From the NCBI RefSeq assembly GCF_003334315.1, contig NZ_QOWR01000039.1: a stretch of DNA of 44,728 nt; one strand, given 5' to 3'. The notes below the pieces were generated by a model, which was not told the origin of the DNA, made no database searches, and saw only the letters and a program-made list of their open reading frames with translations. Origin of the DNA: Escherichia coli. GTDB taxonomy: Bacteria; Pseudomonadota; Gammaproteobacteria; Enterobacterales; Enterobacteriaceae. The translations under genes and the position numbers were made by a program. This document shows, in pieces, positions 31,347 through 31,729 of this stretch (positions are counted from its first letter, which is position 1; every line of letters starts with the position of its first letter).

Positions 31347-31535
31347 TTAACAACAGCCTTCTTCTGTATGCAGCAAGGCAAAAAGTTCTGTAACTCCATT
31401 GTTATTAACTGCACTGGTTACTAACACGTTGTGCGCTCCAGCTTCCCGTAACCAACTTTTCACCAAAGATATTTGTTCCATGCTGGCTAAATCTGCTTTG
31501 GTTACTACTCCAATGACCGGGTGATTCATGGCCCG
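31347..31535 (-). pseudogene. C-terminal fragment of an EutP/PduV-family GTPase-like protein, truncated
   Basis: ORF tail ...VIGVVTKADLASMEQISLVKSWLREAGAHNVLVTSAVNNNGVTELFALL resembles the C-terminus of EutP/PduV; the N-terminal P-loop half is absent. Confidence 0.35.
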
Positions 31536-31560
31536 GTAGGGCGTTTTTACCTCTAATTCC

Positions 31561-31729
31561 TGCTTCAGCGCTGAGATTCCTGCTTGTTGCCGGAAAAGCA
31601 GGCACCTGCCGTCTGAACGGTATCGATCCGGAAGCGTATCTGCGCCATATTCTGAGCATACTGCCGGAATGGCCCTCCAACCGTGTTGACGAACTCCTGC
31701 CATGGAACGTAGTTCTCACCAATAAATAA
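31561..31729 (+). mobile_element. IS66-family transposase C-terminal remnant
   Basis: Plus-strand frame reads ...CRLNGIDPEAYLRHILSILPEWPSNRVDELLPWNVVLTNK*, a characteristic IS66 transposase C-terminus; no upstream transposase body or terminal repeat seen. Confidence 0.5.

Follow-up and report, generated by a model that had tools for sequence, protein, structure and literature searches.

Two broken genes lie on opposite strands between positions 31,347 and 31,729 of the window, a stretch of 44,728 nucleotides of Escherichia coli DNA that was analysed as a whole. One resembles the end of an IS66-family transposase gene, and the other the end of a gene for an EutP/PduV-like GTPase. Which events broke them, in which order did these events occur, and does anything that is left still have a role? 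An earlier note, made from the sequence alone, had taken the pair for the scar of an old IS insertion and deletion at the boundary between core genes and an island. Here, we propose that the locus is a layered, non-functional scar at the junction of tmaR and a CP4-44-type island, which would have formed by the five-step history described below. We hold this reading to be correct with a probability of about 0.85.

The window is part of the E. coli chromosome. Its left 31 kb consist of core genes, which comprise the his operon, yefM-yoeB, yeeZ, yeeY, plaP, tsuAB, sbcB, dacD, sbmC, yeeA and tmaR (yeeX), and its right 13 kb belong to a CP4-44-type island. The scar is located exactly at the junction of these two parts, next to the following genes:

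30801-30851, plus strand: yoeJ (b4818 in K-12), a small ORF of 16 codons just upstream of tmaR, present in the window, with coordinates mapped from K-12
30917-31246, plus strand: tmaR (yeeX), the last core gene before the scar, which converges on the broken GTPase gene (pduV' hereafter); annotated by PGAP and in K-12, with a translation that ends in GEAK and the stop

Both fragments are labelled by PGAP in thousands of E. coli genomes, and in K-12 MG1655 they carry names at the annotated edge of CP4-44, yoeF (b4538, a 357-bp CDS) and yoeD (b4642, a pseudogene, and handled as such in the literature; PMC5526668). Conversion of the K-12 coordinates places yoeF at window 31347-31703 (minus strand) and yoeD at 31601-31729 (plus strand). 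The end of the K-12 CP4-44 feature, 2078748, corresponds to window 31530, and the boundary therefore falls at 31529/31530, one base short of the part derived from pduV. The two fragments are real, with matches far beyond chance, and they lie, as had been claimed, at the boundary of core and island, with tmaR on one side and the CP4-44 edge on the other. Since both are already annotated in K-12 as yoeF and yoeD, they are already known, and the locus is an ordinary, explained scar.

The island itself starts, in terms of recognisable genes, with a remnant:

32018-32110, minus strand: fragment of a DUF957 gene, the first recognisable island gene, taken from the PGAP annotation of loci identical in sequence

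A scan of this stretch against NCBIfam gave no match. It is followed by yeeW, a frameshifted cbtA, cbeA, yeeT and yeeS. The toxin gene cbtA (32339-32712, minus strand), of the CbtA/CbeA type IV toxin-antitoxin pair, is reduced by its frameshift to an ORF of 87 aa that diverges after ...VEKYALV, and the antitoxin gene cbeA (32797-33165) is intact; PGAP likewise calls cbtA "frameshifted" in two strains whose island matches that of the window at about 100%. Further in, the minus strand of 36863-43565 encodes a patatin-like phospholipase, an RdcB-family protein, a dynamin-family protein of 798 aa, a YeeP-like GTPase and a hypothetical protein of 387 aa. This version of the island, with patatin, RdcB and dynamin genes, is found in about 1670 genomes, and the cluster might serve as a module for defence or signalling.

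The tail of pduV

The minus-strand fragment was delimited by profile matches and by its position in other genomes:

31347-31529, minus strand: pduV', the final 60 codons and stop of pduV, equivalent to residues 88-147 of the intact PduV of 147 aa; assigned by Pfam, TIGR02528 and orthologous position

The minus-strand ORF 31347-31703 (118 aa) matches the Pfam family PduV-EutP (PF10662), with residues 57-112 aligned to positions 86-142 of the 143 in the model (E 7.6e-13). Its 60-residue core covers positions 87-141 of the 142 in the TIGR02528 (EutP) profile, with an E-value of 4.9e-11 and a score of 43.1 bits, which is below the curated cut-off of 138.35 for a full-length match; the intact PduV of strain ETEC1721 scores 186 bits. 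In this intact protein, the Walker A motif GPSQCGKT occupies residues 8-15, DTPG residues 42-45 and TKAD residues 98-101. pduV' lacks residues 1-87, and with them the P-loop (Walker A) and DTPG, and it keeps TKAD (G4) and the C-terminus. The earlier note had therefore rightly described the C-terminal 60 or so residues of an EutP/PduV-like GTPase without its P-loop half on the strand opposite to the transposase. No pdu genes lie within the window, and its copy is not part of a microcompartment operon. pduV' is a fragment of an EutP/PduV-family member and is not itself a member.

The gene to which the fragment belonged can be named from the same site in other strains. ETEC1721 has an intact pduV of 147 aa located 100 bp from tmaR and convergent with it, followed by pduU, pduT, pduS, pduQ, pduP and the rest of the operon. 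Over 183 bp, pduV' and the 3' end of this gene share 95% of their DNA sequence, and 54 of the 60 residues are the same. Because the intact gene and its operon stand at the same position with this degree of identity, the GTPase-like fragment is what remains at the 3' end of pduV, the gene with which the Escherichia-type pdu operon closes, and not cargo of the island. The assignment to the EutP/PduV family was right, and the generic gene of the earlier note is specifically the 3' end of pduV, which is intact at exactly this site in 644 of the 5426 complete E. coli genomes (about 12%). Likewise, pduV lies about 110 bp from tmaR in the outgroups E. albertii and E. whittamii and in one divergent E. 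coli. In about 20 genomes of Citrobacter, Pseudocitrobacter and relatives, tmaR-yeeA is found some 2.2 kb beyond pduV, a distance that would presumably fit pduW and pduX of the operon of Salmonella and Citrobacter.

The stretch from tmaR through pduV' is present in 5418 of the 5426 genomes, is covered to at least 80% in 5385, and is single-copy (median of one place per genome); pduV' adjoins tmaR in 5385. The fragment might instead have been a broken microcompartment gene that arrived with the CP4-44-type island, as its position at the island edge would allow, and yoeF is indeed grouped with the uncharacterised CP4-44 prophage genes in the K-12 y-ome listing (PMC11551758). However, the fragment stands beside tmaR in genomes that have no island at this place (ATCC 8739 and the D1 strains described below), in pdu-positive strains it continues without a break into the complete pduV-pduU-pduT operon, and the K-12 CP4-44 feature stops one base before it. 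An origin as island cargo is consequently hardly credible.

The IS66 remnant and the IS110-family block

To the right of pduV', the following features were found:

31530-31600, no strand: spacer of 71 bp, neither pduV nor IS66, the distal end of a single-copy IS110-type block, contiguous with positions 6001-6071 of the FDAARGOS_433 locus (L004)
31601-31729, plus strand: last 42 codons and stop of an IS66-family transposase gene (tnpC), which is K-12 yoeD (b4642); assigned by Pfam PF13817 and by comparison of copies
31730-31759, plus strand: right terminal inverted repeat of IS66, a true IS terminus, ending ...CGCTTAC at 31753-31759 and identical to the right end of the copy in strain 8178 (L005)
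31760-31767, no strand: TTTAATCC, the presumed surviving right-hand copy of the target duplication, being the first 8 bases past the right inverted repeat and equal to L004 7383-7390, the uninterrupted site
31760-31859, minus strand: first 33 or so codons of a degenerate IS110-family transposase gene, with its ATG at 31859 and a product that begins MAVLTISIDLTKNEFQIHG..., cut by IS66 at 31759/31760

The plus-strand frame with its stop at 31727-31729 reads ...TCRLNGIDPEAYLRHILSILPEWPSNRVDELLPWNVVLTNK up to that stop and aligns to positions 4-39 of the 39 in the Pfam model DDE_Tnp_IS66_C (PF13817; E 2e-15), so that the IS66 C-terminal element is present. The similarity to IS66 is sharply bounded and runs from 31601 to 31759, the final 159 bp, or about 7%, of the element. 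Upstream of 31601 no IS66 similarity was found, and the transposase body, tnpA, tnpB, the DDE catalytic region and the left end are absent from the window; the description of a transposase C-terminus with no body upstream thus stands. With these parts missing, the remnant cannot move.

Its closest full-length relative is a copy of 2378 bp with tnpA-tnpB-tnpC in E. coli strain 8178 (L005 1282-3659), which is 99.4% identical to the remnant; identities to copies labelled ISEc23 are 96-97%, and to IS682 95.6%. The terminal inverted repeats of IS66-family elements begin with GTAAGCG. The full copy in strain 8178 starts with GTAAGCGT... on the left, ends with ...CGCTTAC on the right, and is bordered on both sides by the 8-bp duplication TATTGTTC. 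An inverted repeat of the GTAAGCG type is likewise found at the right end of the remnant; of the IS66 terminal repeats for which the earlier note had suggested that the flanks be searched, the right one is thus present at 31730-31759 and the left end is gone. On sequence grounds, the right edge of the remnant is the genuine right terminus of an IS66 element, because the full copy, with its 8-bp duplication, shares that right end. As the left junction is deleted in the window, TTTAATCC is only presumed to be one copy of the 8-bp target duplication of IS66, for which the earlier note had also proposed a search. A tRNA-Asp gene is the site of the sister CP4-type island in which the full copy of strain 8178 is found; there the copy occupies the DUF957/yeeW-like end, beside an IS630 copy, a nearly equivalent island position to that of the remnant in the window.

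The two broken genes had been described as abutting; they are in fact 71 bp apart (31530-31600), with a piece of a degenerate IS110-family block between them. Aligned to intact pduV and to IS66, this spacer matched neither. Its origin is seen in FDAARGOS_433, in which window 31247-31600 corresponds to L004 5718-6071 and window 31760-31916 to L004 7383-7539 (98.7%). In that strain the two stretches are set 1311 bp apart, and the similarity picks up exactly at 31760. PGAP labels the block in three loci (L004, L008 and L009) as an "IS110 family (RNA-guided) transposase, frameshifted" on the minus strand. Against the profile NF033542, the N-terminal piece in the window, assembled across the frameshift, matches positions 1-61 (E 7.7e-4, 18.7 bits), and the C-terminal ORF of L004 matches positions 247-342 (E 1e-22, 80.8 bits), with a cut-off of 140; these scores fit a degraded member of the IS110 family. 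A tblastn search for close intact relatives on plasmids gave a best non-chromosomal hit of about 60% protein identity, by which the ends of the element could not be defined; the 71 bp may belong to the insertion sequence or simply adjoin it.

Further observations concern the block and its surroundings. A degenerate single-copy IS110-family element, uninterrupted at L004 6001-7539, is fixed at this place, and about three quarters of the E. coli genomes have it. Its 5' leader is short, at less than about 90 bp, and some 450 bp follow the stop of the transposase gene, a layout that recalls the IS1111 subgroup. An inverted repeat of 17 nt (31540-31556 and 31952-31968, 76%) was considered as the subterminal repeat of the IS110 element and was set aside, because the match is weak and also because its right arm overlaps a hairpin with a T-run that resembles a terminator of the island operon. 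Past the 71-bp segment, other insertion sequences have accumulated (L004, L007, L008 and L009): IS100 is found about 200 bp beyond the pduV junction in several strains, and copies of IS30, IS1, IS3 and ISEc12 and an IS4 fragment lie further into the same loci. In FDAARGOS_433, yeeA is split by IS100.

The window-type IS66 remnant is present in 3335 genomes, and about 655 genomes have an unbroken IS110 block with the same junction between pduV' and the 71-bp segment, and no IS66. As this junction is the same with and without IS66, it predates the IS66 event. Furthermore, IS66 landed in IS110 DNA, because the N-terminus of the IS110 transposase directly follows the right inverted repeat. These two facts bear on the history that the earlier note implied, in which IS66 inserted once, into an EutP/PduV-like gene, and one later deletion took away both the transposase body and the P-loop half. 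The two fragments do lie within 71 bp, each cut on the side that faces the other, as such an event would have left them. However, the identical junction occurs in genomes that have an intact IS110 block in place of the remnant, and what lies to the right of the IS66 inverted repeat is IS110 and not pduV. A single IS66 event is therefore very improbable. The locus is the scar of an insertion and a deletion, as had been supposed, and yet it was not IS66 that truncated pduV; the deletion linked to IS66, to which the loss of the P-loop half would have been ascribed, took DNA of the IS110 block and most of IS66. At least three separate events are recorded here, of which the IS66 event is the latest and is unrelated to the truncation of pduV.

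Nested scars, proposed order of events and present function

The loss of pdu was mapped on a reference taken from strain H7 (L011 3718-4700), in which pduV' occupies positions 101-399 and a cbi-like ORF and cobU follow from 400. Five arrangements were found:

Pdu-positive strains and outgroups: reference 1-399, then on into pduV; 644 genomes
D1 (H7, TUM13936): reference 1-983 continuous, a direct fusion of pduV' and the ORF; 162 genomes
D2, the type of the window and K-12: reference 1-283 and 564-983, with the IS110 block, the island and an IS4 fragment between; up to 4187 genomes
D3, the type of ATCC 8739: reference 1-277 and 681-983, with no island; about 280-340 genomes
Escherichia sp. MOD1-EC7003: reference 1-379 and 594-898, with nothing between; one genome

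Compared with the pdu-positive ETEC1721, D1 lacks 17.2 kb, from about codon 49 of pduV to about codon 33 of an ORF of 145 aa upstream of cobU. The deleted part runs from the N-terminus of pduV through pduA, pduF and pocR and includes a cobalamin riboswitch. Every other scar has both endpoints inside the sequence that D1 retains. D1 would thus be the ancestral scar, because such a placement of all other endpoints is very unlikely for independent deletions across 17 kb; the comparison suggests, most simply, an older 17.2-kb pdu-pocR deletion that was later entered by mobile DNA. This order is proposed from the comparison of genomes, and since the locus is close to the his/O-antigen hot spot of recombination, variants of the scar may have been exchanged between lineages. 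D3 could have come from D2 via loss of the island, or straight from D1 via a 403-bp deletion.

In ETEC1721 (L042 1542-1716 and 1935-2372), the order is pocR, the cobalamin riboswitch, the 145-aa ORF and cobUST. The ORF resembles the N-terminal part of CbiG only weakly (E 1.4e-4). That it might be the 3' end of cbiP, with a deletion of about 40 kb (cbi and pdu), was ruled out, as pdu-positive E. coli lack cbiA-P. The cobUST genes of K-12-like strains are without their ancestral leader, because the pdu deletion also took the riboswitch and the first 33 or so codons of the 145-aa ORF.

The nested scars may go back to a single ancient 17-kb pdu-pocR deletion, older than the diversification of E. 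coli and common to a cryptic Escherichia lineage, an idea that we advance tentatively and regard as slightly short of an even chance. If it were true, the roughly 12% of strains with an intact pdu operon would have reacquired it, and not kept it, through homologous recombination that spanned the stretch from tmaR to cobU, and most E. coli would have lost the cobalamin riboswitch of cobUST through that same deletion.

For the locus as a whole, we propose an order of four steps from the comparison of genomes and a fifth that concerns present function. First, an ancestral pdu operon would have ended in pduV, convergent with tmaR, an arrangement directly visible in other genomes. Second, the 17.2-kb deletion would have fused pduV, at about codon 49, to the small cbi-like ORF upstream of cobU (D1). 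Third, mobile DNA would have settled in the D1 scar, namely an element of the IS110 family, an island like CP4-44 and a fragment of IS4; in the process another 116 bp would have gone from pduV and 164 bp from the cbi-like ORF (280 bp in all), and these losses would have produced the junction 31529/31530 (D2). Fourth, an IS66 element like ISEc23 or IS682 would have entered the IS110 transposase gene about 33 codons (100 bp) from its start; one illegitimate deletion would then have taken 1311 bp out of the IS110 block and about 2.2 kb out of IS66, of which only the final 159 bp were left, giving the junction 31600/31601. Fifth, the remainder, with neither a P-loop nor the catalytic core of a transposase, most likely does nothing. 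A synthetic junction of IS110 flank, TTTAATCC and IS66 left repeat found no full-length IS66 at this site in the 5426 genomes at a coverage of at least 80%; as this intermediate is absent, we infer the order of insertion and then deletion. On inspection, no microhomology was apparent at 31600/31601.

The fifth step was considered together with two further features:

31347-31703, minus strand: yoeF (b4538), a chimeric ORF of 118 aa, composed of the IS66 remnant read in antisense, the 71-bp spacer and pduV'; from the ORF list and K-12
31260-31288, no strand: perfect hairpin with 14-bp arms between the stops of tmaR and pduV; the inverted repeat is seen in every locus compared

The N-terminal extension of yoeF is not conserved, and strains without the IS66 remnant have ORFs of 121 or 141 aa in its place; the 118-aa yoeF is an accidental read-through of three unrelated pieces. 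The 60-residue piece is an ordinary CDS in PGAP and is present in more than 99% of genomes; a small protein might be expressed from it. Neither window 30700-32400 nor the uninterrupted IS110 block matched an Rfam family at E-values up to 1, no guide RNA of the IS110 element was identified, and a scan for promoters and terminators found no more sites than in shuffled sequence. The hairpin at 31260-31288 is kept in all scar types, in strains with and without pdu. It was not called by the simple terminator scan, and it is probably a bidirectional terminator shared by tmaR and pduV.

The 60-residue PduV tail or the 118-aa YoeF might yet have been retained as a functional small protein, or the DNA might be kept to serve tmaR, for example in the formation of its 3' end. 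At least 174 bp of pduV' are retained in 5385 of the 5426 genomes, erosion, in three or four separate events, never came nearer to tmaR, the ORF starts at a native internal Met, and PGAP and K-12 both treat it as a CDS. However, non-synonymous and synonymous changes occur at similar rates (pN/pS of about 0.5 to above 1 among 12 copies of pduV', with very few substitutions), every nucleotide-binding motif except G4 is gone, the upstream sequence and the N-terminal extension vary by scar type, and within the scar there is no promoter-like site upstream on the minus strand beyond chance. We consider retention for a function quite unlikely; the scar is most likely inert, with no sign of present function.

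Significance and comparison with known systems

As a pair of annotated pseudogenes in the bacterial genome that has been studied best, the locus carries little weight for biology at large. For annotation, yoeF should be read as a relic of pduV, and neither as a prophage gene nor as a real protein, and the IS66 fragment marks a secondary scar within a relic of the IS110 family that is older than it. The boundary is a readable record of the loss of propanediol utilisation in most E. coli, and the scar types could be simple markers of whether pdu was gained or lost, changes that have been linked to host adaptation in some lineages (PMC9997745). Only the nested-scar reading of pdu loss in E. coli is mildly new.

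Compared with the PduV of the Escherichia-type pdu operon, the window copy shares the orthologous position convergent with tmaR and differs in that it lacks residues 1-87. IS66 elements of the ISEc23/IS682 group occur as full copies with tnpA-tnpB-tnpC and an 8-bp duplication, whereas the window has an immobile remnant without the first 2.2 kb or so. In contrast to other IS110-family elements, the block described here is single-copy, frameshifted and interrupted by stops. The scar does not differ from that of K-12, with which yoeF and yoeD correspond coordinate for coordinate and the pduV' sequence is 100% identical. The islands beyond it, however, have diverged in cargo: CP4-44 of K-12 carries flu/Ag43, and the island of the window has instead the cluster of patatin-like, RdcB-family and dynamin-family genes, together with a frameshifted cbtA.
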